DNA of 64,000 nucleotides from an uncultured Alphaproteobacteria bacterium (GTDB taxonomy: Bacteria > Pseudomonadota > Alphaproteobacteria > Acetobacterales > Acetobacteraceae), in the NCBI GenBank assembly GCA_963839135.1, contig CAWIUA010000013.1, positions 27,360-91,359 of the forward strand. Direction: 5' to 3'. A program made the translations under genes and the position numbers. The notes below the pieces were generated by a model. The model saw nothing but the letters and a program-made list of their open reading frames with translations, was not told the DNA's origin and did no database searches. Below, in pieces: positions 81-57,626 of the stretch (the first letter of the stretch is position 1; each line of letters starts with the position of its first letter).

Positions 81-1131
81 CTACGGCCCGGCGGTGACGC
101 GCCGCCGTGTGAGCGCGGCGGCGGCCTGGTCCACGAGCTCCGCAATGATGGCGGCGACGGGCTGGACCGCCGTCACCATGCCAACGCTCTGCCCGGCCAT
201 CACCGAGCCCTGCTCCACGTCGCCCTCGATCACCGCCCGGCGCAGCGCACCGGCCCAGAAATGCTCGATCGCGAGCTGCGCCGCCTCGCGGCTGACATCC
301 CCTGCCTGGAAGCGCCGAATCGTCTCGGCCTGATGCTCCAGGAAATGCCGCGCGCCGGCGTTGGCGAGGCCTCGCACGGGAATGACGGGGAAGCTCGCGT
401 CGAGCTGCACGGAGGGCAGCGCGTCCCGCGCGGCAGCGCGGACGAACGCTTCCTTGAAGCGGGGATGGGCGATGCTCTCCTCCGCCGCGGCGAAGCGCGT
501 GCCGAGCTGCGCACCCGATGCGCCCATCTCCAGGTAGGCGAGGATCGCCTCGCCGCGCCCGATGCCGCCCGCCACGAAGACCGGCACCTCGTCCACGGCG
601 GGCAGGATCTCCTGGGCGAGCACGCCGAGGCTCACGGGACCGATGTGCCCGCCCGCTTCCGATCCCTCGATGACGAGCGCGTCCGCTCCCTGGCGCACGA
701 GCCGGCGGGCGAGGACGAGGGCCGGGGCGAAGCAGATCAGCTTGGCGCCCCCGTCCTTGACGGCGCGCACGGCGGCTGAGGGCGGGAGCCCGCCTGCGAG
801 GACGACATGGCCCACCCCTGACTCTCGGCATACCGCGATCAGATCCATGATCTGAGGATGCATGGTGATGAGATTGACGCCGAACGGCTTGGCGGTGAGC
901 GCCTGGGCGCCGCGTATCTCCGCCGCGAGCTGCTCCGGTCCCATCGAGCCGCAGGCGATGACGCCGAAGCCGCCGGCCTCGCTGATCGCCGCGACCAGGT
1001 GGCGCTCGCTGACCCAGCTCATGGCCCCGCCGAGGATGGCGTAGCGGCAGCCGAGGAAGCGCGCGCCTCGCGCCCAAAGCTGATCGAGCGCCGCATAGGC
1101 CGGCTGGCCCGGCGTCGCCGCGAGGCCGCCC

Positions 1132-1139
<8 letters not shown>
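81..1139 (-). CDS. nitronate monooxygenase / FabK-like FMN oxidoreductase (NMO family)
   Basis: ORF 81..1193(-). NMO-type motifs are present (FGVNLI, VVLAGG, IEGSEAGGHIG, VFVAGGIG). Start trimmed to ATG 1139 (MPEGGLAAT) so it only overlaps the lysC stop by a few nt. Confidence 0.8.
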
Positions 1140-2346
<1,207 letters not shown>

Positions 2347-7016: not shown

Positions 7017-7856
7017 CTATGCTGCCCGGCGCGGCGCGTCCCAGCGCGGTGCCCAGCTCGGGCTGACGAACCGCTCGCCTTTCGGAAGCAGCGCGATGGT
7101 GGCGCGATCCTCGTCATCGAGCTGGATGCTCAGCGCCTCCAGGTTCGCCCGCTGGCTCTCGGCGCGTGCGGCCTTGGGGATGGCGGCGACGCCGGGCTGT
7201 TCCAGGAGCCACGCGAGCGCTATCTGGGACGGCATTGCGCCGTGCTTCCGGGCGATGGCGGCGAGCGCTGGCTCGTCCGCGAGCCGCCCCTGGGCCAGCG
7301 GAGAGTAAGCCGTCACCGCCATGTCGTGCGCGCGGGCGTAGTCCAGCACCGCGGACTGGTCGAGCAGGGCGTGATACTCGACCTGGTTGCAGGCGACCGG
7401 AGCGCCGACCTCCTCCACGGCCAGGCGCAGCAGCGCCACGGGGAAGTTCGAGACGCCGATGGCGCGAGCCAGTCCTTGCTCCTTGAGCGCCGTCAGCGTC
7501 TCCAGCGCGGCCGGCAGGTGGTCCGCGCCGGGCGGCGGCCAGTGGATCAGGTAGAGGTCCACGTAGGGCGTCGCGAGCCGGTCCAGCGAGCGGCCCAGCG
7601 CATCACGCATGGCGCCGGGCGCCAAGTGGTCATACCAGACCTTCGTGGTGAGGTGCACTTCCGACCGCAGCACCGCCGACGAGGCCAGCCCGGCGCCGAC
7701 CGCTTCCTCGTTGCCATACATCTCGGCCGTGTCGAGGTGCCGATACCCGAGCGCCAGCGCGCGCTCGACCGCGACCTGGCAATCGCGGCCCGACATCCGC
7801 CAGGTGCCGAGGCCGAGCTTGGGCATCCGCAAGCCGTTCGCGGTGATCGGCTCCAT
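7017..7856 (-). CDS. aldo/keto reductase (DkgA/B-like)
   Basis: 279 aa. LGLGTW, GYRHLDTAEMYGNE and IHWP motifs of the AKR family. Confidence 0.9.
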   Translation of the reverse strand: MEPITANGLRMPKLGLGTWRMSGRDCQVAVERALALGYRHLDTAEMYGNEEAVGAGLASSAVLRSEVHLTTKVWYDHLAPGAMRDALGRSLDRLATPYVDLYLIHWPPPGADHLPAALETLTALKEQGLARAIGVSNFPVALLRLAVEEVGAPVACNQVEYHALLDQSAVLDYARAHDMAVTAYSPLAQGRLADEPALAAIARKHGAMPSQIALAWLLEQPGVAAIPKAARAESQRANLEALSIQLDDEDRATIALLPKGERFVSPSWAPRWDAPRRAA

Positions 7857-7867
7857 GGGTGTTTCCC

Positions 7868-8908
7868 CTATCGCTTGCCTAGATCGAGAAGCGCGGCGAA
7901 GCCTTCCTCGGTTCCAAGGACGAGGGCGTTGCCGTCCGCGCTCCAGGCGAGCGCCGTCACCGCGCCCTGGCCAGGAGGTGCTATGGGCAGGACGCGCTCG
8001 CTCGCCACGTCGGCCAGCACCACCAGCCCGTCCGAGAACCCGGCGGCGACCATGTCCTGCTGCGGATGGAACGCGACGCGCGCGCAGAGCACGCCATCGC
8101 CGCTCGCCAGCTCCACCGGCGGCTTGCCCATAGGGCCGCCGCCGAAGAACGGCCAGAGCACCACGCTGTCAGCGCCCGACGAGGCGAGCCACTTGCCCGT
8201 GCGATTGAAGGAGAGTGATTCGGTCTTCGCCGGATATCCGCTCATCCGCATGTGCTGCCCGTCTGAGAGCCGCCAACCGTGCAGCGCGTTCTCCTGCATG
8301 GCAGTCACGGCCGCCTCGCCGCCGGGATGGATCGCGATCCCCGTGTGGCTGCCCTTCCACTCCAGGACGCGCGGCTTGTCTTCCTTTGCGCCCACGAACC
8401 AGAGGCTCGCCCCGTTGTAGTGGGACGCGCCGAGGCGCTTGCCCTTGGCGTCGAAGGCGAGGCCGGTGACGGTGCTGGGATGGGTGAGCTGCTTGAGTTG
8501 CTGGAGGCTGCCCGCGTCGAACACGTGCGCCTGCTTTCCGGCGGCGCAGGCAAGCAGGCCGCCCTTCCCGTCGCCGTAGGTCGCCGCCTGCTCGACCCAG
8601 CGCCCGCCGAGCCTGGCGATCTCCTGCACTGAGCCGTCCGGCGCCACCCGGCAGAAGCGGCCGTCGTCGCCACCGGTCACGAACCCGCCCGGCGCCTCCG
8701 CGAAGGCAAGCACCGCGCCCTCGTGGACGGAAACCTGCCGCCACTCGTTGCTCGCGGGCGCGAGCAGCCGCACCGTCCCGTCCCCGAGCGCGAACGCGGC
8801 CGGGCCGCCCGCCCGGCGCGCTGCGGCGGCGCCGACGACGTAGGCACCCAGGTTCGCGGTCGTGCCGCGCTCAGTGAGCAGAAAGCGCGGCGGCAGGGTC
8901 GCGCTCAA
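7868..8908 (-). CDS. WD40/beta-propeller repeat protein
   Basis: 346 aa with repeated G-x-V..LA(W/F)S.DG-type blades. TTG start overlaps the stop of the upstream G3E GTPase. Confidence 0.72.
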   Translation of the reverse strand: MSATLPPRFLLTERGTTANLGAYVVGAAAARRAGGPAAFALGDGTVRLLAPASNEWRQVSVHEGAVLAFAEAPGGFVTGGDDGRFCRVAPDGSVQEIARLGGRWVEQAATYGDGKGGLLACAAGKQAHVFDAGSLQQLKQLTHPSTVTGLAFDAKGKRLGASHYNGASLWFVGAKEDKPRVLEWKGSHTGIAIHPGGEAAVTAMQENALHGWRLSDGQHMRMSGYPAKTESLSFNRTGKWLASSGADSVVLWPFFGGGPMGKPPVELASGDGVLCARVAFHPQQDMVAAGFSDGLVVLADVASERVLPIAPPGQGAVTALAWSADGNALVLGTEEGFAALLDLGKR

Positions 8909-9927
8909 CTCACCGTCCCTTGGGCAATCCCTTCAGCCACCTGGCACGCCTCGAAGCCGCGGCGCAGCTTGGGGCGATTGAGGTTGCGCCCGATGAACAC
9001 GATGCGCGAGGTGCGCGGTTGCCCCTCGGGCCAGCGCCCGACGAACCCGCCGTCCGCGATCATGTGGACCGCCTGGAACGCGAAGCGCCGGTCCTCCTTC
9101 GGATACGCCAGGATGCCCTTCGTGCGCAGCAGGTCCTGTCCGTGCTCGGCGAGGAGCTGGCTCATCCAGGCGTTGAACCGCTCAGGGTCGATGGGACGCG
9201 CTACCTCGAAGCTCACGCTGCGCACCTCGTCCCCGTGCTCGTGCGCGTCGTCGGTCAGGAAGTCGGGCTCGCGCTCCAGCACACGCTCCAGGCTGAACGC
9301 GCCGAGGCCCAGCAGCTCGTCCACGGGCACGTCGCCGCGCGTCGCATGATGGATGCGCGCGGTCGGGTTGATCTCGCGGATGCGCGCCTCGACGCGCTCA
9401 AGCTCCTCGGGCGAAACCAGGTCGAGCTTGTTGAGCACGATCACGTCCGCGAACGCGACCTGGTCTGCCGCCTCGTGGCTGTCCTCCAGGCGCGCGAGCA
9501 GGTGCTTCGCGTCCACGACGGTCACGATGGCGTCGAGCCGGGCCTTCTCGCGCACGGTGTCGTCCACGAAGAACGTCTGGGCGACGGGCGCCGGGTTGGC
9601 GAGGCCGGTGGTCTCGACGATGATGCCGTCGAACTTGGCTGAGCGCTTCATCAGGCCGCCGACGATGCGGATGAGGTCGCCGCGCACGGTGCAGCAGACG
9701 CAGCCGTTGTTCATCTCGAACACTTCCTCGTCGGCGTCCACCACGAGGTCGTTGTCCACGCCCAGCTCACCGAACTCGTTGATAACGACGGCGTATTTCT
9801 TGCCGTGGTTCTCAGAAAGGATGCGGTTGAGCAGCGTGGTCTTGCCGGCGCCGAGGTAGCCGGTCAGCACGGTGACGGGAACTTGGCCCGTGGCGGAAGC
9901 CACGGGACCCTGAGGATTTTCAGACAC
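8905..9927 (-). CDS. G3E-family (CobW/ZigA/YjiA-like) GTPase metallochaperone
   Basis: GTG 9927 preceded by GGAGA. P-loop LTGYLGAGKTTLLN, CxCC motif (NGCVCCTV) and CobW C-terminal domain. Confidence 0.88.
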   Translation of the reverse strand: MSENPQGPVASATGQVPVTVLTGYLGAGKTTLLNRILSENHGKKYAVVINEFGELGVDNDLVVDADEEVFEMNNGCVCCTVRGDLIRIVGGLMKRSAKFDGIIVETTGLANPAPVAQTFFVDDTVREKARLDAIVTVVDAKHLLARLEDSHEAADQVAFADVIVLNKLDLVSPEELERVEARIREINPTARIHHATRGDVPVDELLGLGAFSLERVLEREPDFLTDDAHEHGDEVRSVSFEVARPIDPERFNAWMSQLLAEHGQDLLRTKGILAYPKEDRRFAFQAVHMIADGGFVGRWPEGQPRTSRIVFIGRNLNRPKLRRGFEACQVAEGIAQGTVS

Positions 9928-12739: not shown

Positions 12740-13834
12740 TCAACCGGCAATCTCCCGACGCAGCGCGAGCAGCCGCCGGGCCGCCGCTTCCGCGCCGAAC
12801 CCTTCCGCGCGACACCGCCCGGCGGCCGCGAGCGCTGCGCGGCGCGTCTCGTCCCTGGCCAGGTCGAGGAAGGCGCGGGCAAGAACGCCGGGTTGGTCCG
12901 GGTCCGCGTAGAGCGCCGCCTGGCCGGCGACCTCGGGCAGCCCACCCCTCGGCGAGCACACCAGCGCAGCGCCGCACGCCATCCCTTCCAGCGCCGCCAG
13001 CCCAAACGGCTCCTCCCACCGGCTCGGCACGGCGACGATGGCGGCTCGCCCCATGGCCTCCAGCACCGCCGAGTAAGGCTGGTAGCCGCGCATGGCGACG
13101 CCCGCCGCCGCCGCCGCGGGCCGGAGCGCGCGCGTGAAACCGGTCTCCGGGCTGTCCGGCGAAAAACGATCAGCGCCCAGGATCTCCGCGCGCCAGCCCG
13201 GCAAGCGCGGCAGCGCCTCGGCGCAGGCTTGCACGAAGCTGTCGGCCCCCTTGTCCCGCACGACCCGGCCCGCGAACAGGATCAGCTTGTCCCGCTCCGC
13301 GCGTGGCGGCGGCGGCAGCTCGATGCAGTTGGGCAGCACGACTGGCTCCCGTCCCACGGGTGGCTCCAAGCCGTCGAGGAGGCGCCGGCGCAGCCACTCG
13401 GACGCTGTGACCACGCGGGCGAGTCGGGCGAGCAGACGCACCCGTTCGCCCGGCGTGCGGGCGTCACGCATTCCTTGCGGGTCGTTGTTGAGCCACAGCA
13501 GGACGGGGATCTTCGGAAAGCGCCGGGCAAGGTGGAGGGCGACCGCCGGGCGATTATGCACCTCGATGAGACGTGGCTCGATTCCGCGCAGGACACGCGC
13601 GACGCCGGACGCGTATCGCGCGATCCCATCGAGGCCCCAGCCGGCCGCCGCGGGGCGGAACTCGACGTCCGCAAAGGGCGCGGCGCGCGTCGGCCGTCCG
13701 ACCACGATGCCATCCGCGCCCGCCCGCACCAGCCGCCGGACGAGCAGCCCGATGGCACCGACACTGCCGTCCGAGAATCCTTCCTTGGGCGGCAGCACGA
13801 TCGCAACGGGCCCTACCACGTGAACAGGACCCAC
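12740..13834 (-). CDS. glycosyltransferase family 4 (GT-B, group 1)
   Basis: C-terminal two thirds of ORF 12740..14659. GT1 motifs (FAGR...KG, PSRWEEPFGLAALEGMACG). GTG starts at 13834 or 13819. Confidence 0.85.
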   Translation of the reverse strand: MGPVHVVGPVAIVLPPKEGFSDGSVGAIGLLVRRLVRAGADGIVVGRPTRAAPFADVEFRPAAAGWGLDGIARYASGVARVLRGIEPRLIEVHNRPAVALHLARRFPKIPVLLWLNNDPQGMRDARTPGERVRLLARLARVVTASEWLRRRLLDGLEPPVGREPVVLPNCIELPPPPRAERDKLILFAGRVVRDKGADSFVQACAEALPRLPGWRAEILGADRFSPDSPETGFTRALRPAAAAAGVAMRGYQPYSAVLEAMGRAAIVAVPSRWEEPFGLAALEGMACGAALVCSPRGGLPEVAGQAALYADPDQPGVLARAFLDLARDETRRAALAAAGRCRAEGFGAEAAARRLLALRREIAG

Positions 13835-14659
13835 CCTCCCCCTGCCTCGGCCAGGATCCCGCCCGGCGCCTCGCGCCCCTCGGCGCCGAGCAGGGCACGC
13901 ACGGCCCGGCCCTGGTCGTCCACTCGGACAACCGCCGCCGCGATGCAGGGCAGTGCGGGCGCGGCAACGCCCGGCAGCACGGATTGCAGCGCGTCCGGAG
14001 GAAGCATGCGCACTACACCGCCGGGGAGCGGCAGCGCGAAGCCGCCTGCGGGATCGGGCACGACTGGTCGGCCTGCGAACCGCGACAGCCGCGCCGCAGG
14101 TCCTGGCCGGGTTCTCGACGACGAGGATCGCCGCCTCGAGCGCCGCCGCATGGTTCGGATGGTCGAAAAAGCGCTCCTGCCACAGCAGCTCCGGCGTATG
14201 ATGCTGGATGAGCTGCACGCGGCCCTCCGGCGCATCGGGGAGCGGCAGCTCGGTGAACTGCGCGCGCGGCCCCTCCGGTTCGGCGTCGCTCACGAGCCGC
14301 TCGCGCCGTGAGACACCCGGCACTTGCATCCCCGCGCCCTGCAGCCGCGCGAGGTTCGCCTCCGCGTCCTCCATGCCTAGCACCAGGATGTGCAGGCCCT
14401 CGTAGCGGTCGAGATAGCGCTCGAGCCCGCCGAGAGGACGGGACGGGTCGGCGACGCCGAGCAGCTCCAAGTAACTGCCGTTGCGCAGCATGGCGCAGCG
14501 ATTGCCCGTTCCGAACGGGGTGATGGGCCAGCCCGGCATCACCGATCCCGCGTGACTCGCCCAAGGCGTCAGCTTGAAGCCGAGCCGCTCGAAGCGCGCG
14601 TGCAGCGCCCACGGATCACGGTTCGCCCAGCCCAGGTGGTCAAGGGATGCCGCGATCAA
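13813..14659 (-). pseudogene. VOC (glyoxalase-like) family protein, one frame change near 14095
   Basis: N-terminal part is in the frame of ORF 12740..14659 (MIAASLDHLGW...AILVVENPART). C-terminal part (AARLSRFAGRPVV...GGWVLFTW*) is in ORF 13813..14235. Confidence 0.7.
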
Positions 14660-26651: not shown

Positions 26652-26748
26652 CCGTCATGGCCGGCGCAGGCCGGCCATCCACGACTTCGGCGTGTGACGG
26701 CGGTGCGGCTCGAAGACGTGGATGCCCGTGCCAAGCACGGGCATGACG
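26652..26748. repeat. structured intergenic repeat (two GC hairpins nested in a longer inverted repeat, REP-like)
   Basis: ATGGCCGGC-GCAG-GCCGGCCAT (26657-26678) and ATGCCCGTGC-CAA-GCACGGGCAT (26722-26744). Flanks CATCCACGACTTCG / CGAAGACGTGGATG and CCGTCAT / ATGACGG pair. Confidence 0.6.
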
Positions 26749-26882: not shown

Positions 26883-27788
26883 ATGTTCATGCCCGTGGCC
26901 TTTACGCTTGCGAGCTATCTGAGCGGCTATGTGGGCCTCCATACCGGAGGAAGCGGCTTCATCGGCGGCACGGCTACGAGCATCTTTGCCGGTCTGGCAA
27001 TGGATGGGATGAAAACCCTCTGTCGGTTCGGTAATGAGGCATATCTCCGACGGTACAAAGGCATTGACGAGAACCATGTTGTCATGCGCGGCATCCGAGA
27101 GGCGCAGCTCGAGGCCCTCTCCGCCGTGCTGCAGCGCTTCGACGCGGACAGGCGGGACCACCGGGACTCGGCGCAGGAGAGCTTCGCCGAGCTCCTACAG
27201 AAGTTCCTCCAACGCGAGGAGAAACTGGTCAGCAAGCTCCGGTTCGACGGACCGCCCGAGGCCACCGAGGCCGAGAGGCAACTGCGGCTCGACGTCGTCG
27301 GGCTGCTGCCCGATGCGGTCTCGCCGGCTCTCGCCGCGCGGCGCGGCCTGGCGGACGCCGCAGCCGATCGTGATCGGTTTCAACGGGCTTGCGAGAAGGC
27401 CGTCCTGGGAGAGCTGCGTGCGCTGGTGTTCGAGGAGATCCCGCCGTTCTTTCTTGCCGCTTTCGAGGGCAATCGGGACCGCGCCGACGGTTGGTTCGAC
27501 CTGTTCTTCCGCAGGGTCGCAGAGGAGATAAAGAAGGGCGGGACGTTCGCCCAGATCTGGCAGGCCGAGCAGGTGGCCGCCATCGCCTATACGACCGGCG
27601 CTGCCGCCGAGAACGCCGCGCTGATCGCGGAGGCGGTGCAGGCGATCCGTGACGGGGTGATCGCCCAAGGCACGGCGCTCTCGGCCCTGGCGGGCGAGGT
27701 CGAAGCAGTGCGCGAGCACGTCGCGGCGATTCATGCGCGGACCATCGGCGATCTCGCCATGCCGCTCGACTTCGCGGTCCTCGGTTGA
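26883..27788 (+). CDS. N-terminal module of the NLR-like locus: glycine-rich two-helix membrane segment + helical domain
   Basis: 301-aa ORF. First about 45 aa are hydrophobic and Gly-rich (GLHTGGSGFIGGTATSIFAGLAMDG); the rest is helical and charged. It ends 56 nt inside the next ORF and may be fused to it by a 1-nt indel. Confidence 0.6.
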   Translation: MFMPVAFTLASYLSGYVGLHTGGSGFIGGTATSIFAGLAMDGMKTLCRFGNEAYLRRYKGIDENHVVMRGIREAQLEALSAVLQRFDADRRDHRDSAQESFAELLQKFLQREEKLVSKLRFDGPPEATEAERQLRLDVVGLLPDAVSPALAARRGLADAAADRDRFQRACEKAVLGELRALVFEEIPPFFLAAFEGNRDRADGWFDLFFRRVAEEIKKGGTFAQIWQAEQVAAIAYTTGAAAENAALIAEAVQAIRDGVIAQGTALSALAGEVEAVREHVAAIHARTIGDLAMPLDFAVLG

Positions 27789-29846
27789 CACGGCCGGCCA
27801 TCTGCGCTTCGCCCCGCGCAACCCGCTGGTTCCCTTCTTCGGCCGGGGCACGGAGATGGAGGCTCTGCACGGCTTCCTGAACGCCCCTCCCGACTTCACG
27901 TGGTGGCTCCTCTGCGGCTCGGGCGGAGCCGGCAAGACGCGGCTGTGCCTTCGGCTTGCCATGCTGGCTCATGCCGAAGGCTGGCGCGCCGGCTTCCTGC
28001 CCAAGGACTACATTGCCGATGCGGCCACCCTCGACGCATGGCAGCCGCAGCGGCCAACGCTGATCGTCGCTGATTACACTCTGAAGCGGCGGGACGCCGT
28101 GCGCGTGCTGGCAGAGCGGCTGGCCCGCCGCGTCGGCGCGCTGCCGCAGCCCGTACGTCTGTTGCTGATCGAGCGCGAGGGGGGCGAGAACTTCGACGCG
28201 CAGTTCCTGGGCGCCGACAGCCAGGGCGTGATCAAGCCGCACCGTCATGCCGATCCGGCATTTGGCTCCGAGCTTGCCTTGCCGTCGCTGGCGGAGGACG
28301 ATCTGTGGACACTGGCCGAAGGGGGGCGTTGGCAACCGGCACCACGGCCGCTGCCCCTCCCGCGCGACGCATTCTTCGAGCGGCTGGACGAGCTGGACCA
28401 AGAGCGGCGGCCGTTGGTGGCGATGATCCTGGCCGACGCGGTGGCCGCCGACCCTGGGCGCCCCGCCTTCGACAGCCTCGCAGAGGAGCTGAGGGAGCTG
28501 CTGAAGCGCGACCGCCGCTATCTCTGGCCGGCCAAGCTCGACTGCGCCGAGGCAGAGATCGGTGCGCCGGATGCCGACCCGGCGATCGCCTTCGCCACCA
28601 TGCTGGACGGCATGGCGCAGGAGGAGTTCGATACGCTGGAAGCCGCGTGTGGCCGGCCCCTGGATTTCGACTCGGCGCCTGTGCTTCCGCGCTGGGGACG
28701 AGCTTCGACTCGCATGAGCCGCGTCTGCCGCCCCTGGAGCCTGACCTGATCGGCGAGTTCTTCGCACTGGAGGTGCTGGACAGCCGAGAGGGCTTCCGCG
28801 GCCTGCGTCATCCGCGCCTGGGCGAAGCGGCTTGGCGCCAGCGGCCGGATCGCATGGCGGATTTCGTGCGGCGCGCCGGCCAGAACTTCCCGGGCCATCG
28901 GGCGATCCAGCCCCTGCAGGTGCCTATACCCGGCATCGCCGAGAGCTGGCGCCTGCGTGGCTTCAGCCTGCTGCTGGGGGCCGGCACCTTGGATTCCGGA
29001 CTTGTGGCGACGATGGATGCGCTGCGCGACGCCGCCGCGAAGGACGTTGCGGCGGCGGGCGCGCTTGCCGAGATCGCCGTCGCTGTGACGGCCCTGCCCG
29101 ACGAGGCGACCGCGCCGGCGCTGCGCCGTTCCTTGCTACGGGACATGGCCGTGATCGCCGACGCCCACCCGGCGGAGCCGCCGCTGCGCGAGCAGTGGGC
29201 CAAGGCGGCCTACCAACTATCTCACCAACCGCGCCGCCGCGGAGCCTGAGGCCTGCCGTGCGCTGCTCGACGCGCTGCACAGCCCTCGCCGACGCCCACC
29301 CGGCGGAGCCGCCGCTGCGCGAGCAGTGGGCCAAGGCGGCCAACAACTACGTCTTCAACCGCGCCGCGGCGGAGCCTGAGGCCTGCCGTGCGCTGCTCGA
29401 TGCGCTGCGCAGCCTCGCCGACGCCCACCCGGCGGAGCCGCCACTGCGCGAGTGGTGGGTCCGTTGTAGTGATGCCTATGTAATTACGTGGCGGACGCAG
29501 GCGCCGGACGAGACCTTGTGGCTGTTGGACGCCACGGCGGCGGTCGTGGAGGCGCATCCGGGCGAGGACCCGTTGTTCTACTGGCACGCCATGGGCGCGG
29601 TGGCGTGGCTGCAGGTGAACGTCGCGAACGAACCAGGATGCGGGGGAGCAGGTCTGGCAGCGCCTCCTTCATCTCGCGGACGGCCGCGAGGCGGTGTTGC
29701 ACGAGGTTCTCGCACGCTTCGGGATTGAGCTCCAGCGGCGAGTGAGCCCGCGGCGGCATCGCCGGCTCAAGCCGATCCGCCAGCCTGACAATCCCGCCTG
29801 CATGGAATCTCCTGTGCCATCCGAAGCCGGACAATGGTCAGGTTAG
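27733..29846 (+). pseudogene. STAND/NLR-like P-loop NTPase with C-terminal 43-aa helical repeats, spread over >=4 frames as sequenced
   Basis: FFGRGTEMEAL - Walker A CGSGGAGKTRL - Walker B TLIVADY - RLLLIER - LEPDLIGEFFALEVL. Frame changes lie near 28690, 29212, 29284 and about 29620. The last frame ends at TAG 29844-29846. Confidence 0.65.
29157..29455 (+). repeat. 2.3 near-identical tandem copies of a 129-nt (43-aa) coding unit
   Basis: Units start at 29157, 29288 and 29417 (GCCGACGCCCACCCGGCGGAGCCGCC...). They encode ADAHPAEPPLREQWAKAANNYVFNRAAAEPEACRALLDALRSL. The first unit is 131 nt because of two extra C residues. Confidence 0.85.
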
Positions 29847-30024
29847 CTGCCGCTCGATTGCCGAATTCTGATTTCTGCACCGGAAGCGAATGAGTGTGGG
29901 TAGGTCGCGCGAGCCGAGAAGGTTTCGAAGCCACCGACCGCGCTTGAATGTCGGCCGGATTTCCCCGAGTGCCTACTCAAACTGGCCCTGTGATACCGAC
30001 CGCCCTGAACGCTGACCGGCCCGG

Positions 30025-30142
30025 GCCATGACCGGCGCCTCCCGTCACGCAACCCACTCACCCCTTGACCCCGCGGGCGACAAACCACCTTATCCTCCCC
30101 GATGTCCTCCAGCCCCACCCTCCCCGACCCAACAGACCGCGC
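30025..30142 (+). repeat. about 118-bp segment duplicated in inverted orientation at 50854-50972 (upstream region + first 14 codons of an orphan gene)
   Basis: Hand alignment: GCCATGACCGGCGCCTCCCGTCACGCAACCCACTCA...CTTGACCCCGCGGGCGACAAACCACCTTATCCTCCCCGATGTCCTCCAGCCCC matches the reverse complement of 50854-50972 with scattered substitutions. Confidence 0.8.
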
Positions 30143-30825
30143 CCGCCAGCGCGACGAGGACGCCCAGGTACTACCGCGGCATCCTCCACGAGCTGGTCGA
30201 GATGGCCACCGACATCGCCCGCACCGTCCACCGCCAGGCCACCGCCGAGCAATCCGCCGACCCCACCCAGGAGCAGCAGACCAAGCAGCAGCCCCACAGC
30301 CACCCCAGCCCGGCCCAACCCCCGACCTGACAATCGCCTTCGACCGCCTCGCCCGCACCATCCGCCGCACCATCGCCCTCGCCCGCAAGCTCTCCGAGCT
30401 CGACCGCGAAGCGCCTAGGCCGAAACTCCGGGCCGAACGCTGCGACGAGTGCTGCCCCAGCGCGCGCCAGCGCCGCACCGACCGCGCCGAGACCGACGCC
30501 CTCCACGCCGAGCCCGAGCGAGCGCCCCGAGGCACCCGATTTCGACGCCGACGAAGACCTCGACGACGACCTCGACGAGCAATCCTTCGCCGACCTCATC
30601 GCGAGCCTGCGCCACGACACAGGTCTCGCCACCCTGACCGACGCCCAGCTCCGCCAGCACCGCACGCCCCAAAGTGCGCAAGAGCGCGACCCAGGCGAGA
30701 CGTGCAGCCTCTGCGCCCGAGCCGGCGAACCCAGGACGACGCAAGTGCAGCACCTCGCGACCAGCGCCCCCGCCCGGCGCCGGACCGCGCCCGCCCGGAG
30801 CGGCACCGGCCCCCCAGCACCCTGA
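30102..30825 (+). pseudogene. Pro/Arg/acidic-rich orphan protein (about 240 aa when frames are joined)
   Basis: Pieces: MSSSPTLPDPTDRARQRDEDAQ / YYRGILHELVEMATDIARTVHRQATAEQ... / PDLTIAFDRLARTIRRTIALARKLSELDRE... / PDFDADEDLDDDLDEQSFADLIASLRHDTGLATL...TGPPAP*. Frame changes lie near 30165, 30325 and 30530. No SD before the ATG. Confidence 0.5.
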
Positions 30826-30883
30826 TCCGGGGAGCAGGCCGCGACGGTTAGAGGCCGATACCAGGCTCTTTGGTTGGGCCTCC

Positions 30884-31688
30884 CTAGACCTCCACCTCCA
30901 CGCATACCGGCACGTGATCCGACGCCTGCGGCCAATCCCGCGCCGCCCGCAGCGCCGTATGCGCGCGCAACCCGCCTTCCAAGTCCCGGCTCGCCCACAC
31001 ATGATCGAGCCTTCGTCCTCGGTCGCTCGCCGCCCAGTCGCGGTTGCGATAGCTCCACCACGTGTAAAGCTTCTCCTCCGCCGGCACGAAATGCCGGGCC
31101 ACGTCGAGGAAGCCCGTATCCAGCCACGCCGCTCAGCCGCTCCGTCTCCGGCGGCGTGTGGCTGACCACGTCAAGGAGCTGCTTGTGGCTCCAGACATCG
31201 TGCTCGCCCGGCGCCACGTTCAGGTCGCCCGCGAGCAGCGCGCGCCGCGGCGGGTTCGCCCGGAACCACGCCGCCGCCTCGTCCAGGAACGCGAGCTTGT
31301 GGGCGAACTTGGGGTTCGCCGCCGGGTCCGGCACATCGCCGCCCGCCGGGACGTAGAAGCAGTGCACGGCGAGCGGCCCGGACGGAAGCGCCACGTGCGC
31401 CGCGAGATGCCGGCAATCGCCCCGGCCGCACCAGTCGGGCGAGGTCTCGTCGAGCGCGAGCGGGATGCGCGAGAGGATCGCGACGCCGTTATACCCCTTC
31501 ATCCCCCGGCGCAGCACGTGCGGGTAGCCGAGCGCGCCCGGCGCCCCGTCAGGGAACAGCTCGTCCGGCACCTTGGTCTCCTGCAGGAGGATCAGGTCGG
31601 GATCGAGGCTGCCAACCACCCGCTCCAGGTGCGGCAGGCGCAGGCGGAGCGAGTTGATGTTCCAGGTGGCGAGTCGCAGGCGGGGCAT
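30884..31688 (-). pseudogene. xthA: exodeoxyribonuclease III, frame change near 31128
   Basis: MPRLRLATWNINSLRLRLPHL...LLQETK in the frame of ORF 30171..32702. C-terminus WLDTGFLDVARHFVP...SDHVPVCVEVEV* is in ORF 30884..31102. Confidence 0.85.
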
Positions 31689-42700: not shown

Positions 42701-42807
42701 TTTGGGGCTTTGCCCCAAACCCCACTGGGGCCGGCGGCCCCAGACCCCGATCCGTGATGGGTTCCAAGGGCTGCGCCCTTGGTGGGGTCCAGGGGCAAAG
42801 CCCCTGG
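42701..42807. repeat. array of four short GC hairpins (REP-like intergenic repeat)
   Basis: TTTGGGGC-TTT-GCCCCAAA (42701-19), CTGGGGCC-GGC-GGCCCCAG (42725-43), CCAAGGGC-TGC-GCCCTTGG (42764-82), CCAGGGGC-AAA-GCCCCTGG (42789-807). Confidence 0.7.
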
Positions 42808-42847
42808 CCTTGCCTCGTTCACCCTTCCTCAAGCGCGCTGCGCTGAA

Positions 42848-44779
42848 ATGGCGGCTATGCGCGCGGCATGGCAGGGCAGCGGGGCGGCGTTCCTCGCACG
42901 CGGGACGGAGAGCGAGATCGAGGCCGTGCTCCAGCGCGCGCTGCGCGTCCTGCCGGGCGCGGCTGGGTGGCACGTCGCCCTCGATGTCAGCCTGCCCCGG
43001 CCGGGCCGGCGGCTCAGCGCCGTTCTCGCGCTGGACCGCGCGGTGATCGCGCTGCTCATACGGACGGAGGGCGCGCGCTTCCAGTCCGCGGATCGCCGCG
43101 CCGTGGAGGATGCGGCGCTCGACCTCGCGGACGGCCACGCGGGCAGCGCCGGGCTGCCGGTCGTGCCCGTGCTGTGCGTGCTGGGCGGGACGGGTCCGTC
43201 GCCCGTCCGGCTGCTGCCGATCGCGGGGGCCGGGCCGACCGTGGAGGCGAACCGGCTGCTCCTGCCCCTGCTGCTGCGCGAGATGGCGCTGAGCTTTCCC
43301 GCCCCGTCCCAGCCGCTCGACCCGGCAAACTGGGCGGAAGCGCCCTGGCGCTGGTCCCCCGGCCTGCTCCAAGCGGCGTGCTTGCTCTATGCGCGGCACG
43401 CTGTCCCGGCGCTGCGGGCGGCGCTGGCGAGCAGTGACGCACTCGCGCGGACAACTGCGGCGCTACAGGGCTTGGCGGCGCGGGCAGCGGCGGAGCGGCG
43501 GCCAACGATCCTCTTCGTCACCGGGCCACCCGGCGCGGGCAAGACCCTCGTCGGCCTCGACCTCGCCTTCGAGCCAGGCCAAGGTGCCGCCTATCTCACG
43601 GGCAACCCGACGCTCGTCCACGTTCTGCGGGAGGCGCTCGCGCGGGACGCCGCCTCGCGCGGCCTTGCGCTCCGCGCGGCGCGGCAGCGGGCCTCCGCCG
43701 TCGTGCAGCCTTTGCCCGCGTGGCGCGACCATTTCGCCGCGCGCGCCGCCGAGGCGCCCGGCAGCCGCGTCGTCGTGGTGGACGAGGCGCAGCGGTGCTG
43801 GGTGCGCGAGCACGCCGTCGCGAAGACGCGCAACGCAGCCGTGCCGCTCCAGGATTCGGAGCCGGGATACCTGCTGGACGCGATGGCCCGCCGGGCGGAC
43901 GGACCGGTGCTCGTCTGTCTCTGCGGCGGAGGGCAGGAGATCCACGCGGGCGAGGGCGGACTCGCAGCCTGGGGCGAGGCACTCGCGGCGCGGCCGGTGT
44001 GGCACGCGGTCGCGGCACCCGAGGCGTTGGAGAGTTCCGATCCGCGCCAGCGCCTGGCCGATCTGCCCGGCCTCGCACGCGACCCGGCGCTGCACCTCGC
44101 CGTCCCGCGCCGTCAGCTCAAGGTCGAGAGCGCGGCGGCCTGGGCGGACCGCGTGCTTGCGGGCGATTGGGCGGCAGCGCGGCGTCTCTCCGAGGCGGGG
44201 CCGCCCGTGCGCGTGACGCGCAGCCTCGACGAAATGCGCGAGACCCTGCGCGGCGCGGCCCAGGGCAGTCAAACCATCGGCTTGGTGGCGAGCAGCTACG
44301 CACGGCGGCTCCGCGCGGATGGCCTCGGCGGCACGCTGCCCCATCAGGACGCGGACGCCGTCGCGCGCTGGTTCCTCGACCGGGCGCCCGACGTGCGCAG
44401 CGGCGGTGCACTGGAGGTTGCTGGCACCGAGTTCGCCATCCAAGGGCTGGAGCTCGATCACACCGGGCTGTGCTGGGATTTGGACCTCATCCCGGACGGC
44501 GACGGCTGGGCCGCGCGCGCCTTCCGGGGCAGTGCCTGGACCCGGCTGCGTGATCCCATCGCCGTACAGGACCGCCGCAACGCCTACCGCGTCCTGCTCA
44601 CCCGCGCCCGGCGCGGCACGCTGGTCTGGGTGCCGCGCGGCGACGCGCGCGACCCGACCCGGCCCCCTGCCCTGTACGATACGGTCGCCGAGACCCTGCT
44701 CCGCTGCGGCGCCGCGCCGCTGGACACTGTAGCTATAACCGTGGAAGATCGGCCCCGTCCGGACCCGGTGCTGCTATGA
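42848..44779 (+). CDS. DUF2075 family (Schlafen-like helicase-type) ATPase with N-terminal nuclease-like domain
   Basis: N-terminus ...GRRLSAVLALDRAVIALLIRTEG...VEDAALDL. Walker A VTGPPGAGKT, Walker B VVVVDEAQRCW. C-terminus RNAYRVLLTRARRG. Confidence 0.8.
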   Translation: MAAMRAAWQGSGAAFLARGTESEIEAVLQRALRVLPGAAGWHVALDVSLPRPGRRLSAVLALDRAVIALLIRTEGARFQSADRRAVEDAALDLADGHAGSAGLPVVPVLCVLGGTGPSPVRLLPIAGAGPTVEANRLLLPLLLREMALSFPAPSQPLDPANWAEAPWRWSPGLLQAACLLYARHAVPALRAALASSDALARTTAALQGLAARAAAERRPTILFVTGPPGAGKTLVGLDLAFEPGQGAAYLTGNPTLVHVLREALARDAASRGLALRAARQRASAVVQPLPAWRDHFAARAAEAPGSRVVVVDEAQRCWVREHAVAKTRNAAVPLQDSEPGYLLDAMARRADGPVLVCLCGGGQEIHAGEGGLAAWGEALAARPVWHAVAAPEALESSDPRQRLADLPGLARDPALHLAVPRRQLKVESAAAWADRVLAGDWAAARRLSEAGPPVRVTRSLDEMRETLRGAAQGSQTIGLVASSYARRLRADGLGGTLPHQDADAVARWFLDRAPDVRSGGALEVAGTEFAIQGLELDHTGLCWDLDLIPDGDGWAARAFRGSAWTRLRDPIAVQDRRNAYRVLLTRARRGTLVWVPRGDARDPTRPPALYDTVAETLLRCGAAPLDTVAITVEDRPRPDPVLL

Positions 44780-45660
44780 CCCGCATCCTGCTCGCCTTCC
44801 TGCTCCTGCTCGGCACGGCACAGGCCGGCGAGCTGAAGGTCGCGACCTGGAACCTGGAGTGGCTGACCACCAATCCCGAGGACTTGCCCGAGGGAACGTC
44901 GCCGAAGCCAGCCGCGGGCATCGAGGCGCTGCGCCGCTACGCGCTGCTGCTCGACGCGGACGTCATCGCCATCGAGGAGGTCGATGGTCCGGCCATCGCC
45001 GCCCAAGTTTTCCCGCCCGACCGCTACCAGATCTTCATGACGCACGACCGCGTGAAGCAACGGGTGGGCATCGTCGTCCGGCGCGGCATTCCGGCACGAC
45101 AGAATGGGGATCTCGCAGCGCTCGATCTGTACCCCGACGCCCGCCATCCGCTGCGCAGCGGCGCGGATTTGACGCTCGACCTGCCGAGCGGCCCGGTCCG
45201 CCTGCTTGCCGTTCACCTCAAGACGGGGTGCCACTACGACGCGCTCACGTCGCGACGCCCGGCGTGCCACACGCTGCACGATCAGGTGCCGCCGCTGCAG
45301 GGCTGGATCGCGCAGCGCCGGGCGGAGGGCGTGCCCTTCATCGTGCTCGGGGACTTCAACCGCGAGATGAATGGCCGCGACGACTTGCTCGCCGCGCTGC
45401 GTGAATCAGCGCCGCTCGCGCTGGCGACCGAGGGGAAGGCGAGTCCATGCTGGGGCGGCACGACGTTCATTGACCACATTCTCGCGGGCGGCGCCGCGAA
45501 GGGCTGGATGGAGCCGGGGACGTTGCGTGTCCTCGTCTATCGCGAGCGCGACGAAGCCTCGCGCACGCTTTTGTCAGATCACTGCCCGGTGTCCGTGCGC
45601 TTTCGCTTGCCGGACGATGCGGCCATAGTGCGCGCCTCACCAACACGGGAGACGCCATAA
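44776..45660 (+). CDS. endonuclease/exonuclease/phosphatase (EEP) family protein with signal peptide
   Basis: ATGA overlap with the DUF2075 stop. MTRILLAFLLLLGTAQA signal. VATWNLEW, IAIEEVD, VLGDFN and SDHCPV motifs. Confidence 0.82.
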   Translation: MTRILLAFLLLLGTAQAGELKVATWNLEWLTTNPEDLPEGTSPKPAAGIEALRRYALLLDADVIAIEEVDGPAIAAQVFPPDRYQIFMTHDRVKQRVGIVVRRGIPARQNGDLAALDLYPDARHPLRSGADLTLDLPSGPVRLLAVHLKTGCHYDALTSRRPACHTLHDQVPPLQGWIAQRRAEGVPFIVLGDFNREMNGRDDLLAALRESAPLALATEGKASPCWGGTTFIDHILAGGAAKGWMEPGTLRVLVYRERDEASRTLLSDHCPVSVRFRLPDDAAIVRASPTRETP

Positions 45661-54925: not shown

Positions 54926-57626
54926 TCAGTGGGCAGGTTCTTCGACGGCGAGACGGGCGAGAGCGGCGGCGATGCGCGCGGCCTCGCTTTCGGCGGCGGC
55001 GAGGCGCTCGCGGGTTTCCTCGACGATTTCGGGCGCGGCCCGGCCGGTGAAGCCGGGGTTGGCGAGCTTCTGGCGCAGCTTGGCGGCCTCGGCCTCGGCC
55101 TTGTCGCGGTCGCGGGCGAGGCGGGCCTGCTCGGCCGCGAGGTCAACAACGTCGCCGAGCGGGAGGACGGCAGTGGCCTCGTCGAGCACGATCTGCACGG
55201 CGCCGGGCGGCAGCGCGCCTTGCAGCGGGCTGACGCTCGCGGCGCGGGCGAGGCGACGAACCGCGTCTTCCCAGCGCGCGGCGCGGGCGAGCGTCTCGGG
55301 CCGGGCGTCGCGCAGCAGGACCGGCACCGGGGCGGCCGGGGGCACGTGCCACTGCGACCGAATTGAGCGCACCTCGGAAACGAGACGCACGACCCAATCC
55401 AGCTCAGCGCGCGCCGCCTCGGCGCCCGGCACCGCGGCCGGCTCGGGCCAGGGTGCCCGGATCAGGCTGCACAGCGGACCGAAGCCGAACTCGTCCCACA
55501 GCGCCTCGGTCACGAACGGCATGGCCGGGTGCAGCAGGCGTAGCAGCGTGCCGAGGGCGTAGGCGGCGGCGGCGCGGACCTCGCCCGCTTCCGCCGGGTC
55601 GTCGGCGACGAGGATCGGCTTGGACAGCTCCACGAACCAGTCGCAGAACACGGTCCAGGTGAAGCGGTGGAGTGTCGCCGCATACTCGTCGAAGCGGTAG
55701 GCTTCCAGCGCCGCGGTCGCGTCGCGAACGGCGTCGTTCAGCGCGTCCAGCAGCCAGCTTGTGAGCGGCAGGTGCGCCCGGTCCGGCGTCCAGCCCGCGA
55801 CGGGCTTCACGCCGTTCATCTCGCAGAAGCGCGCGGCGTTCCACAGCTTGGTGACGAAGGCGCGGTTGGTCTCGACGCGCGACGGCCCGAGCTTCACGTC
55901 CCGCCCGGGGCCGGCGAGCGCGCAGATGGTGAAGCGCAGCGCGTCCGTGCCGTAGGCGTCCGCGAGCTGCAAGGGGTCCACCACGTTGCCCTTGCTCTTG
56001 GACATCTTCTGGCCGCGCTCGTCGCGGACGAGAGGATGGATATAGACGGTGCGGAACGGCACCTCGCCCATGAAGTGCAGCCCCATCATCATCATCCGGG
56101 CGACCCAGAAGAAGATGATGTCGAAGCCTGTCACCAGCACGTCGCCGGGGTAGTAGCGGGGCAGCTCCGGCGCCTGGTCCGGCCAGCCGAGCGTGCTGAA
56201 CGGCCAGAGCGCCGAGCTGAACCAGGTGTCGAGCACGTCCTCGTCCTGGTTGAGCGGCACGCCCGCGCCCGCCTGAGCTTGCGCCTCCGCCTCGCTGCGG
56301 GCGACGAAGACTTGGCCGTCCGGGCCATACCAGGCGGGGATGCGGTGGCCCCACCAGAGCTGGCGGCTGATGCACCAGGGCTGGATGTCGCGCATCCAGG
56401 CGAAGAAGGTGTTTTCCCACTGCTCGGGCACGAAGCGCGTCGCACCCGTCTCGACGGCGGCGATGGCGGGCTTGGCGAGCTCCGCCGCGTTCGCATACCA
56501 CTGCACGGTCAGGAGCGGCTCGATAGGGACGCCGGAGCGGTCGCCGTGCGGAACCTGGTGCGTATGGGGCTCGGCGCGGTCGAGCAGTCCCAGCCGCTCC
56601 AGCTCGGCGACGATGACGGCGCGTGCGGCGTTGCGGCCCTGCCCGGCGAGCGACTGCACGAAGGCGGGATCGGCTACGCCGTCCACGGGGCGCAGCTCGC
56701 CCTCGATCTCGCCGAGCGTCACGCGCGCCTCGCGGTCGAGGATGCTCGGCATGGGCAGGCCGTGCCGGCTTCCGACCTGGAAGTCGTTGAAGTCGTGGGC
56801 GGGGGTGATCTTGACGGCGCCCGTGCCCTTCTCCGGGTCGGAATACTCGTCCGCGACGATGGGCAGGCGACGCCCGACCAGCGGCAGGATCGCGTGCTTG
56901 CCCACGAGATCGCGGTAGCGGTCGTCGGTCTGGATGAACAGCGACGGCCGTATCGCCGAGCAGGGTCTCGGGCCGGGTCGTGGCGACGGCGATGAACCGG
57001 CCCGGCTCGCCCTCGATAGGGTAGCGGATGTACCAGAGGTGGCCGCGCACCTCGCGCTGCTCGACCTCGAGGTCGCTGATCGCCGTCCGGAGCTTCGGGT
57101 CCCAGTTCACGAGGCGGCGGTCGCGGTAGATCAGGCCCTGTTCGTAGAGGGTCACGAACACCTCGCGCACGGCGCGCGAGAGGCCCTCGTCCATGGTGAA
57201 GCGCTCGCGCGGCCAGTCGAGCGAGGCGCCGATGCGGCGGAGCTGCCGGGTGATCGTGCCGCCGGATTCGGCCTTCCACTGCCAGACGCGGTCCAGGAAC
57301 GCCTCGCGGCCCAGGGCCTGGCGCGACGTGCCTTCGGCGTCCAGCAGGCGCTCGACGACCATCTGGGTCGCGATGCCGGCATGGTCGGTGCCGGGCTGCC
57401 AGAGCGCGTCGCGGCCCTGCATGCGCCGCCAGCGGATCAGCGCGTCCTGCAAAGTCATCGTCAGGGCGTGGCCGATGTGCAGGCTGCCGGTGACGTTGGG
57501 CGGCGGGATCATGATGGTGAACGGGGCCGCGTTCGAGTCCGGGTGCGCTGCGAACGCGCCGGAGGCTTCCCAGCCCGCGTAGATCGCGGGTTCGACGGCG
57601 GCCGGGTCGAAGTGCTTGTCTAACAT
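54926..57626 (-). pseudogene. valS: valine--tRNA ligase, single frame change near 56915 (almost certainly a sequence indel)
   Basis: N-terminal part ([15 protein letters not shown] ...TAVAVHPD) is in the frame of ORF 55404..57626. The rest ([19 protein letters not shown]...KMSKSKGN...coiled-coil C-terminus) is in ORF 54926..56905. The junction reads CCA GAC C GAC GAC CGC. Confidence 0.92.

Follow-up and report, generated by a model that had tools for sequence, protein, structure and literature searches.

What gene lies at positions 26883-29846 of the stretch of DNA analysed here, is it intact in the organism, and what might its product do? The stretch (64,000 nt in its whole length, hereafter "the window", to which all gene coordinates refer) belongs to contig CAWIUA010000013.1 of an uncultured member of the Acetobacteraceae. 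An original prediction, made from the sequence alone, had proposed that the locus encodes a STAND (signal transduction ATPases with numerous domains) NTPase with an N-terminal module and a helical-repeat sensor, i.e. a protein resembling the NLRs (nucleotide-binding leucine-rich repeat proteins), which in the record is split over several reading frames. The best overall explanation, to which we give an even chance, is a single gene for an NLR-like STAND protein that combines an N-terminal module (N-module), an nSTAND5-type NTPase, and a tetratricopeptide repeat (TPR)-like sensor, that has frame breaks which are most likely errors, and that would act in defence by permeabilising the membrane.

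Reading frames and gene structure

Four overlapping open reading frames (ORFs) in three frames lie on the forward strand, i.e. 26883-27788 (301 aa), 27733-28749 (338 aa), 28305-29249, and 28832-29728, and the first two of them share 56 nt. The window has a G+C content of about 70%, so that the G+C content at third codon positions is a good marker of the coding frame. The respective frame plot and a three-frame translation gave the order 0>1>0>1>2>0. The first three changes lie near 27780 (0 to 1), 28680 (1 to 0), and 29210 (0 to 1); the stretch of frame 1 that follows is short, frame 2 ends near 29630, and the last segment, in frame 0, continues to the stop codon. The frame thus changes five times, once between the N-module (part i) and the NTPase (part ii), and four times inside the NTPase and the sensor (parts ii and iii). 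The original prediction had listed three collinear parts in this order on the forward strand, the 56-nt overlap, and at least four frame switches in parts ii and iii. The ORFs and all motifs that it quoted were recovered as described, and the number of switches in parts ii and iii is exactly four.

After removal of four single bases and addition of one, the locus can be read without a stop as a protein of 986 aa. Met3, encoded at 26889, aligns with the starts of the homologues and may be the true start. In the homologues, all three parts are encoded without a change of frame, and the locus therefore reads as one gene, with a predicted protein of about 950-986 aa that contains parts i to iii in a single polypeptide, one of the two options of the original prediction. 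Uninterrupted reading from the N-module into the NTPase was found in P0011, P0007, P0018, P0020, P0024, P0031, and P0025, as well as in the metagenome loci L009 and L011. Intact relatives have lengths of 921 aa (P0020), 959 aa (P0024), 1370 aa (P0031), and 1468 aa (P0025); in P0021 (1134 aa), the first ~80 residues are absent. The homologues share a linker of the form ...LPLDF-9 residues-LRFSPRNPxVPFxGR, which spans the junction of the first two ORFs. The layout of the corrected gene is as follows:

26883-29846, + strand: whole gene in five frame segments, encoding a 986-aa NLR-like STAND protein after five one-base corrections
26883-27008, + strand: uncharged hydrophobic segment rich in Gly, Ala, Ser, and Thr (aa 1-42), two short stretches with HTGGSG between them
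27009-27758, + strand: all-helical bundle and long linker helix, with the conserved motifs GIDENH, LRxAQL, LPxA..LAARR, GWFDLFxR, and IWxAEQ (alignments A1 and A3; AlphaFold2)
27759-27867, + strand: conserved linker MPLDF...LRFAPRNPLVPFFGRGTEMEAL from the N-module to the NTPase, containing indel site 1
29154-29678, + strand: four TPR-like helical repeats of 43-44 aa, HPxEPxLREQWAxxxxNY....AAAEPEACRALLDAL (protein alignment)
29679-29846, + strand: C-terminal helix DGREAVLHEVLARFGIEL, conserved in L003 and P0020, and a tail of 37 aa that lacks confirmation by homologues
29844-29846, + strand: stop codon, the end of the corrected frame

The start of the gene had been described as richer in A/T than the genome, and the values agree with this: the G+C fraction is 0.617 for the first 300 nt, compared with 0.694 for the whole gene and 0.696 for the window.

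Origin of the frame breaks

The breaks were placed by comparison with L003, the closest full-length relative (~60-70% identity), and with the sister repeats of the window gene itself. Five sites were obtained:

~27783, + strand: site 1, an extra base, the removal of which restores the conserved linker exactly
28677-28680, + strand: site 2, one base missing where frame 1 gives way to frame 0 (placed with L003 and further homologues)
29211, + strand: site 3, an additional base within repeat 1 (TACC versus AAC in the sister repeat)
29284, + strand: site 4, an extra C (AGCCCTCGCC versus AGCCTCGCC in the sister repeat, CCC versus CC)
29636, + strand: site 5, an extra G (CCAGGAT; C-terminus aligned with L003)

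The spacing of the repeats, 131 nt versus 129 nt, confirms both insertions in repeat 1.

The five breaks are probably single-base assembly errors, a cause that is likelier than a biological one, and the gene is probably intact in the organism. Of 91 positions without variation among eight relatives, 89 are retained by the corrected protein, and for the N-module the ratio is 22 of 23. Intact family members retain the conserved positions to the same degree, so there is no sign of relaxed constraint. Four of the five indels are one-base insertions beside an identical base, and the same signature was found in valS, the essential gene for valyl-tRNA synthetase. This gene (54926-57626, reverse strand) is split into two overlapping ORFs by one extra C (GAC-C-GAC, at 56912-56936), with positions 2-185 of the Pfam profile tRNA-synt_1 in one ORF and positions 172-413 in the other. 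Because valS is essential, its split is almost certainly an assembly error, and the record is indel-prone. The gene next to the orphan ORF that follows our locus, xthA (exodeoxyribonuclease III; 30884-31688, reverse strand), has a +1 shift at 31112-31142: positions 1-173 of the Pfam profile Exo_endo_phos are covered in one frame, and the C-terminal YTWWSYR...GRRLDH...SDHxPV part lies in the ORF 30884-31102. At least eight indels fall within 27783-31130, in three genes and on both strands, which points to a locally poor consensus rather than to one decaying gene. In 8 of 11 short-read metagenome or Logan loci, the homologous gene stays in one frame throughout. Where the homologue is broken in L001, L002, and L019, other genes of the assembly are split too, such as clpA in L019, or the contigs bear names that may indicate long-read sequencing.

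The alternative that survives best is a genuine, very recent pseudogene, in which at least some of the five frameshifts are real, as one might expect if an immune gene is costly or toxic to the cell itself. The locus has five indels within 3 kb, compared with about two split genes elsewhere in the window: when ~37 other genes were sampled by Pfam profile coverage, only valS and xthA appeared split, a comparison based on sampled genes because a hidden Markov model (HMM) of GC periodicity was too noisy on strand to count frameshifts window-wide. Other members of the family are broken as well, e.g. L003, in the lysine codon of Walker A and in a short-read assembly, L013, and L015. We nevertheless regard a pseudogene as rather unlikely. 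The frame segments have no in-frame stops and have kept the conserved residues, the indel cluster continues into the orphan ORF and into xthA on the opposite strand, the essential valS has the same type of insertion, most short-read homologues are intact, and the assemblies behind L001, L002, and L019 have the above-mentioned peculiarities. Programmed frameshifting and phase variation were also considered and rejected, since the five scattered sites lie in neither long homopolymers nor slippery sequences and do not recur in homologues.

Two of the broken relatives have features of their own. In L003 (2731-2760; also in L004), the sole frameshift is located inside the Walker A lysine codon, directly after GSGGAA, and could be a real inactivating mutation. 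Both an ENA/JGI scaffold and a Logan assembly show it, and the two may derive from the same reads. L013 (218-4381) is a 5.2-kb soil metagenome contig with two convergent copies of the NTPase-sensor gene and frame changes in both.

The NTPase core and the repeat sensor

The NTPase region of the corrected protein contains the following motifs:

before Walker A, + strand: FFGRGTEMEAL, the first motif in order
27916-27939, + strand: Walker A (P-loop) GSGGAGKT, invariant in the family, with the residues G-GKTR conserved in the alignment
28057-28077, + strand: Walker B strand TLIVADY, with D and Y invariant in the family
28153-28176, + strand: strand VRLLLIER, with E and R invariant in the family
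28734-28778, + strand: LEPDLIGEFFALEVL, the conserved LEPDLIGEFF motif at the end of the winged-helix region

The arginine of VRLLLIER may be the sensor-1 arginine, to judge from its position, and the position of LEPDLIGEFF may correspond to the MHD or FxHxxxQEF motif of other STANDs. The best Pfam matches were nSTAND_NTPase5 (PF25199) and AAA_16. PF25199 aligned with residues 338-431 at profile positions 41-133 and stayed below its gathering cut-off of 34 bits: the ORF scored 24.2 bits, the reconstructed protein 22.1 bits, and the intact homologue P0020 22.6 bits. Close homologues carry precomputed PF25199 matches. The NTPase is a peripheral STAND of the nSTAND5 type and a peripheral member, at best, of PF25199.

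Structural comparisons were performed with an AlphaFold2 model of P0020, which is 46% identical over the NTPase and winged-helix region. The model has a mean predicted local distance difference test (pLDDT) value of 81.6, with values above 90 over the NTPase and the sensor, and it shows a strand-helix NTPase core, a helical and winged-helix region, and a C-terminal helical solenoid. In a Foldseek search against the PDB, the model matched EfAvs5 best (E value 1.2e-5), followed by 6mfv, a STAND-TPR protein from an archaeon (2.2e-5), and by the AVAST5 filament, all of them ahead of the AAA+ proteins ORC, Cdc6, and RFC. Walker A of the form GxxxxGK[ST], a Walker B aspartate and a later strand with arginine, a helical and winged-helix fold, and C-terminal repeats, the combination expected of STANDs, were all found, the fold in the P0020 model. 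The motifs, the Pfam matches, and the P0020 model support membership in the STAND class, and the proposed three-part architecture is supported as well. A profile of NTPase plus sensor had no match among PDB sequences, and a literature search on nSTAND5 yielded nothing relevant. PADLOC gave no relevant match when the window protein and seven members of the family were compared with it; the sole contact was that of the trypsin region in the L007 protein with Avs1b (E value 2e-5).

The C-terminal array had been predicted to consist of helical repeats of about 43 aa, and four repeats of 43-44 aa were found. They resemble units of the TPR_10/12 type, which are present in other proteins with the N-module. 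Tandem Repeats Finder reported a period of 130 nt with 2.3 copies (29155-29459), and the first two repeats represent a recent tandem duplication. The number of repeats in the homologues ranges from 3 to more than 15.

An N-terminal module absent from the searched domain libraries

The N-module has a length of ~250-290 aa and consists of a hydrophobic tip, a bundle of seven or eight helices, and a linker helix. AlphaFold2 predicted residues 60-260 as an all-helical bundle with pLDDT values above 90; the bundle has no enzymatic motifs. Five motifs are conserved in the order GIDENHH, LRxAQL, LPxAFD..LAARR, GWFDLFVRDAA, and IWNAEQ. The tip of the family members comprises 40-60 aa, in two stretches around a short Gly-rich turn, with the consensus ...LSCLGLGAAA...GG.AGNLATD.... 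It contains 43% Gly, Ala, Ser, and Thr and almost no charges, and its hydrophobicity is found family-wide, with a median Kyte-Doolittle maximum (19 residues) of 1.63 and values of at least 1.6 in 29 of the 56 members. The window copy, at 1.34, is at the weak end of this range. Because of this weak hydrophobicity and because the GxxxG register is not conserved in close relatives, a glycine zipper is not established. Of the two Gly-rich hydrophobic helices that had been proposed, two short hydrophobic stretches rich in Gly, Ala, Ser, and Thr are present, with a hydrophobicity below the usual transmembrane threshold.

Many N-modules have a conserved cysteine in the ...LSCLG... motif, 6-10 residues from the start, that the window copy and its nearest relatives do not have. 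The motif had brought a lipoprotein signal peptide to mind, but this was rejected, since the cysteine appears too near the start for a lipobox and is missing from the window copy.

The N-module had been described as belonging to no recognised family, and the library searches are in accord with this. No Pfam model covered any of 22 N-modules, apart from scattered single matches with E values of 0.005 or worse; one of the 22 matched NNH2 (E value 0.047), which is not significant, and none matched HeLo, HeLo-like, or SesA. NCBIfam and PADLOC contained no match, a sequence-profile search of the PDB gave none, and Foldseek with the N-module model returned a best E value of 0.48 and TM-scores below 0.25 in the PDB and nothing in BFVD. 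A homology search with the alignment of the 22 sequences recovered only four close relatives, which had already been found, and no relatives were detected on the viral contigs of IMG/VR.

An exhaustive HMM search with six N-modules matched at least 361 representative protein clusters at E values of 1e-3 or lower, 159 of them at 1e-10 or lower. In the sampled members, the module is located at the N-terminus. Among 36 longer members, it stands before cores of the nSTAND5 (8), NACHT (3), NB-ARC (2), NPHP3_N (2), or AAA_16 type, with sensors of the TPR_10/12 (13-14) or WD40 type. The N-module therefore exists as a conserved and modular unit and, as far as the searched libraries show, appears to be an undescribed, fairly widespread domain at the position of an effector. 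In P0032, P0036, and P0062, an N-module is followed by a coiled coil and TPR_10/12 repeats, and no P-loop NTPase is recognisable; the N-module can therefore couple to a sensor without a STAND core.

Module swapping and comparison with known systems

In a sister subfamily (P0003-5, L007, L008), the same NTPase-sensor chassis has a trypsin-like peptidase at its N-terminus and no N-module. Immediately upstream of the trypsin-type genes in L002 and L008 is a Trypco2 gene (at 7615-7971 and 7998-9191, respectively), an arrangement that resembles the SsAvs4-Pepco pair. Pepco/Trypco has been shown experimentally to be a protease-activated pore toxin (PMC12642450). In L008, the Trypco2 gene and the gene after it share 4 nt, and the Trypco2 product is extended at its N-terminus by ~300 residues. 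A distant homologue, P0013, carries SEFIR/TIR domains. Swapping of N-terminal modules on a constant sensor core is a signature of NLR-like immune proteins (PMC7159879, PMC13581612, bioRxiv 2022.07.19.500537). Only two homologues, both distant, were found on PLSDB plasmids, and a search of genome contigs with the single reconstructed protein gave one weak match to the repeat region, in L005 (a metagenome-assembled genome of Methylomagnum).

The chassis, in which a STAND core is joined to a TPR-like sensor, is of a known kind and lies near the clades of nSTAND5 and Avs-like proteins; the N-module is the new element. The Avs/AVAST proteins (EfAvs5, PDB 9jap and 9nc9) have the same tripartite order of effector, STAND NTPase, and TPR-like sensor, and EfAvs5 was the best structural match. 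In contrast to them, the window protein has no Avs match in PADLOC and no sequence similarity to PDB entries, and its N-module is unrelated to the SIR2, nuclease, and protease effectors. The second-best structural match, 6mfv, is similar over the NTPase and the TPR region, but has only 12% identity, a global TM-score of about 0.2, and no comparable N-module. Some N-module proteins have NACHT, NB-ARC, or NPHP3_N cores, which brings them near the bNACHT proteins (Kibby et al.), and the NNH domains of the latter are likewise all-helical, N-terminal, and of uncharacterised action; in contrast, the window NTPase is not a NACHT, and the similarity to NNH2 is confined to the single match mentioned above.

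The HeLo, HeLo-like, and BELL domains, the four-helix bundle of MLKL, and the coiled-coil (CC) domain of plant NLRs such as ZAR1 are helical bundles that are located on NLRs or receive signals from them, and their hydrophobic N-terminal helix inserts into the membrane after oligomerisation. The N-module shares the position and the general make-up, which we regard as a functional analogy only. Those domains measure ~120-140 aa, are built of five helices, and have a single N-terminal helix in which residue 2 or 3 is acidic, whereas the window N-module has ~250 aa, seven or eight helices, and a two-segment tip rich in Gly and Ala, and it has no Foldseek match to them.

Genomic context

The gene is flanked by genes for an OmpR-type response regulator and XthA, as the original prediction had stated. 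No tRNA gene was found near it, island boundaries or flanking direct repeats around it were not detected, and neither was a sigma-70-like promoter upstream. A defence or mobile context is not supported for the window or for L006, the locus of the intact homologue P0020, since the flanks are housekeeping genes in both. Mobile contexts were found at other homologues, i.e. integrases, a Toprim gene, and a DDE transposase in L001, an integrase fragment in L008, and three insertion sequence (IS) elements in L017; in L019, the neighbours are NikA-like and BrnT genes. These are few loci, too few for statistics. No conserved partner gene adjoins the gene in the window, L006, L003, or L009. The window also contains no second copy of the N-terminal motif or of the N-module, as would be expected of a partner of the amyloid-signalling type (best E value 0.25).

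The NLR-like gene is sited differently in the window and in L006, which is consistent with independent insertion in related genomes. A gene pair for nitronate monooxygenase and aspartate kinase is present in both, at 81-2346 (reverse strand) in the window and at 929-3300 in L006.

The intergenic region of 380 nt upstream of the gene contains two perfect palindromes, at 26655-26680 and 26720-26747. Each of them occurs once in the window at up to 3 mismatches, so that the designation of the element at 26.65 kb as repetitive extragenic palindromic (REP)-like is not established.

Proposed function and alternatives

A conflict-related role at the membrane is the best guess because of the swap between the N-module and trypsin plus Trypco2/Pepco, the uncharged hydrophobic tip that is found family-wide, and the mobile-element context of some homologues. 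If the protein works like Avs and bNACHT proteins, a foreign protein from a phage would be bound by the TPR sensor. The STAND core would then oligomerise in an NTP-dependent manner and bring the N-modules together, and the hydrophobic tips would insert into the inner membrane and permeabilise it, leading to abortive infection. A role in defence, the sensing of a ligand, and an action on membranes are thus suggested by analogy, and abortive infection through membrane damage is plausible. More specifically, the N-module may be a so far undescribed, widespread cell-death execution domain that permeabilises the membrane directly after STAND oligomerisation, a functional counterpart of HeLo, MLKL, and plant CC domains; this is a tentative proposal, to which we give less than an even chance.

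Several results weigh against the explanation as a whole. With five indels in 3 kb, the breaks are much denser than the background of the window, and the frameshift in the Walker A lysine codon of L003 is present in a short-read assembly. The nSTAND5 score of 22-24 bits falls short of the 34-bit cut-off, and NCBIfam and PADLOC (PADLOC-DB v2) contain no model that matches the protein. The Kyte-Doolittle maximum of the window tip is below the usual transmembrane threshold, AlphaFold2 predicted the tip with low confidence (pLDDT below 50), and the helical bundle has no Foldseek match in the PDB to pore-forming or HeLo/MLKL/CC structures. Finally, no defence gene, integrase, or transposase lies next to the gene in the window, and the intact gene in L006 is likewise alone among housekeeping genes.

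With regard to function, the best-supported alternative is that the N-module is a membrane anchor or adaptor rather than a killing effector, placing the sensor at the inner membrane or recruiting a separate effector. The tip could be a constitutive hairpin anchor, as basic residues follow it, and the bundle has neither enzymatic motifs nor a likeness to known pore formers. In addition, all-helical adaptor domains without enzymatic activity, i.e. effector-associated domains (EADs) and Death-like domains, are common on bacterial STANDs (PMC7159879). In contrast, no conserved gene adjoins it in the loci given above, the window has no second copy of the N-terminal motif or module, and the N-module occupies the place of the killing module of the sister subfamily (trypsin, with Trypco2 upstream). 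We therefore consider an anchor or adaptor unlikely.

Even less probable, in our view, is a non-immune signalling STAND, a housekeeping regulator like MalT or AfsR. The housekeeping flanks in the window and in L006 would be in line with such a role. In contrast, Pfam revealed no DNA-binding or enzymatic output domain in the protein, and the family is rare and patchily distributed, at differing genomic positions. Its N-terminus is exchanged among trypsin/Trypco2, SEFIR/TIR (P0013), and the N-module, its repeat number varies, and some homologues have IS, integrase, or toxin-antitoxin neighbours.

A two-gene system, the other option of the original prediction, in which the 301-aa ORF encodes a separate membrane effector and the second, overlapping ORF the NTPase, is in agreement with the 56-nt overlap in the record and the separate NCBI annotation as P0015 and P0001, but it is contradicted by the homologues that cross the junction in one frame and by the exact restoration of the linker when base 27783 is dropped, and can be dismissed as very improbable.

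Other features of the window

An orphan gene had been noted at 30.1 kb, and an ORF is indeed present between the NLR-like gene and xthA (30028-30851, forward strand), but it is itself frame-broken, with at least two frame changes at about 30320 and 30500. Its GC skew reaches -0.39 and its AT skew +0.46, and the predicted product is rich in Pro, Arg, and acidic residues and has no Pfam match.

The ORF at 42779-44779 (forward strand) encodes a full-length DNA/RNA helicase domain of Schlafen group 3 (SLFN-g3_helicase, E value 2e-59). It overlaps by 4 nt with an ORF of the endonuclease/exonuclease/phosphatase family at 44776-45660 (forward strand). The two could form a separate conflict-related pair, 13 kb from the NLR-like gene.

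An ORF of 639 aa at 12740-14659 (reverse strand) combines Glyoxalase_3 with a GT4 glycosyltransferase and has a weak "GT4-conflict" match (E value 2e-10). Its frame is disturbed at 13822-14078, and it may represent two genes or another frame problem.

Implications

Bacterial NLR-like STANDs are now known as pattern-recognition receptors for phage proteins, and many of their N-terminal output domains are uncharacterised. The architecture of the window protein fits the current knowledge of bacterial STAND immunity. For the genome itself, the practical lesson is that the region 27.8-31.1 kb and valS probably carry indel errors that split annotated genes.

For the family, the interest lies in the N-module. 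Pfam, NCBIfam, PADLOC, and the PDB do not contain it, although it forms the N-terminus of at least 361 protein clusters spread over several STAND clades, and it swaps with a module of trypsin plus the Pepco pore toxin on the same sensor chassis. If the N-module is an effector that permeabilises membranes directly, bacteria would have a further route by which NLR oligomerisation leads to membrane death, one that needs no protease. Such a route would be an alternative to the protease-plus-Pepco route of the sister subfamily and would parallel the CC-NLR resistosomes of plants and the HeLo domains of fungi, and the N-module would become a new marker for defence-finder tools.

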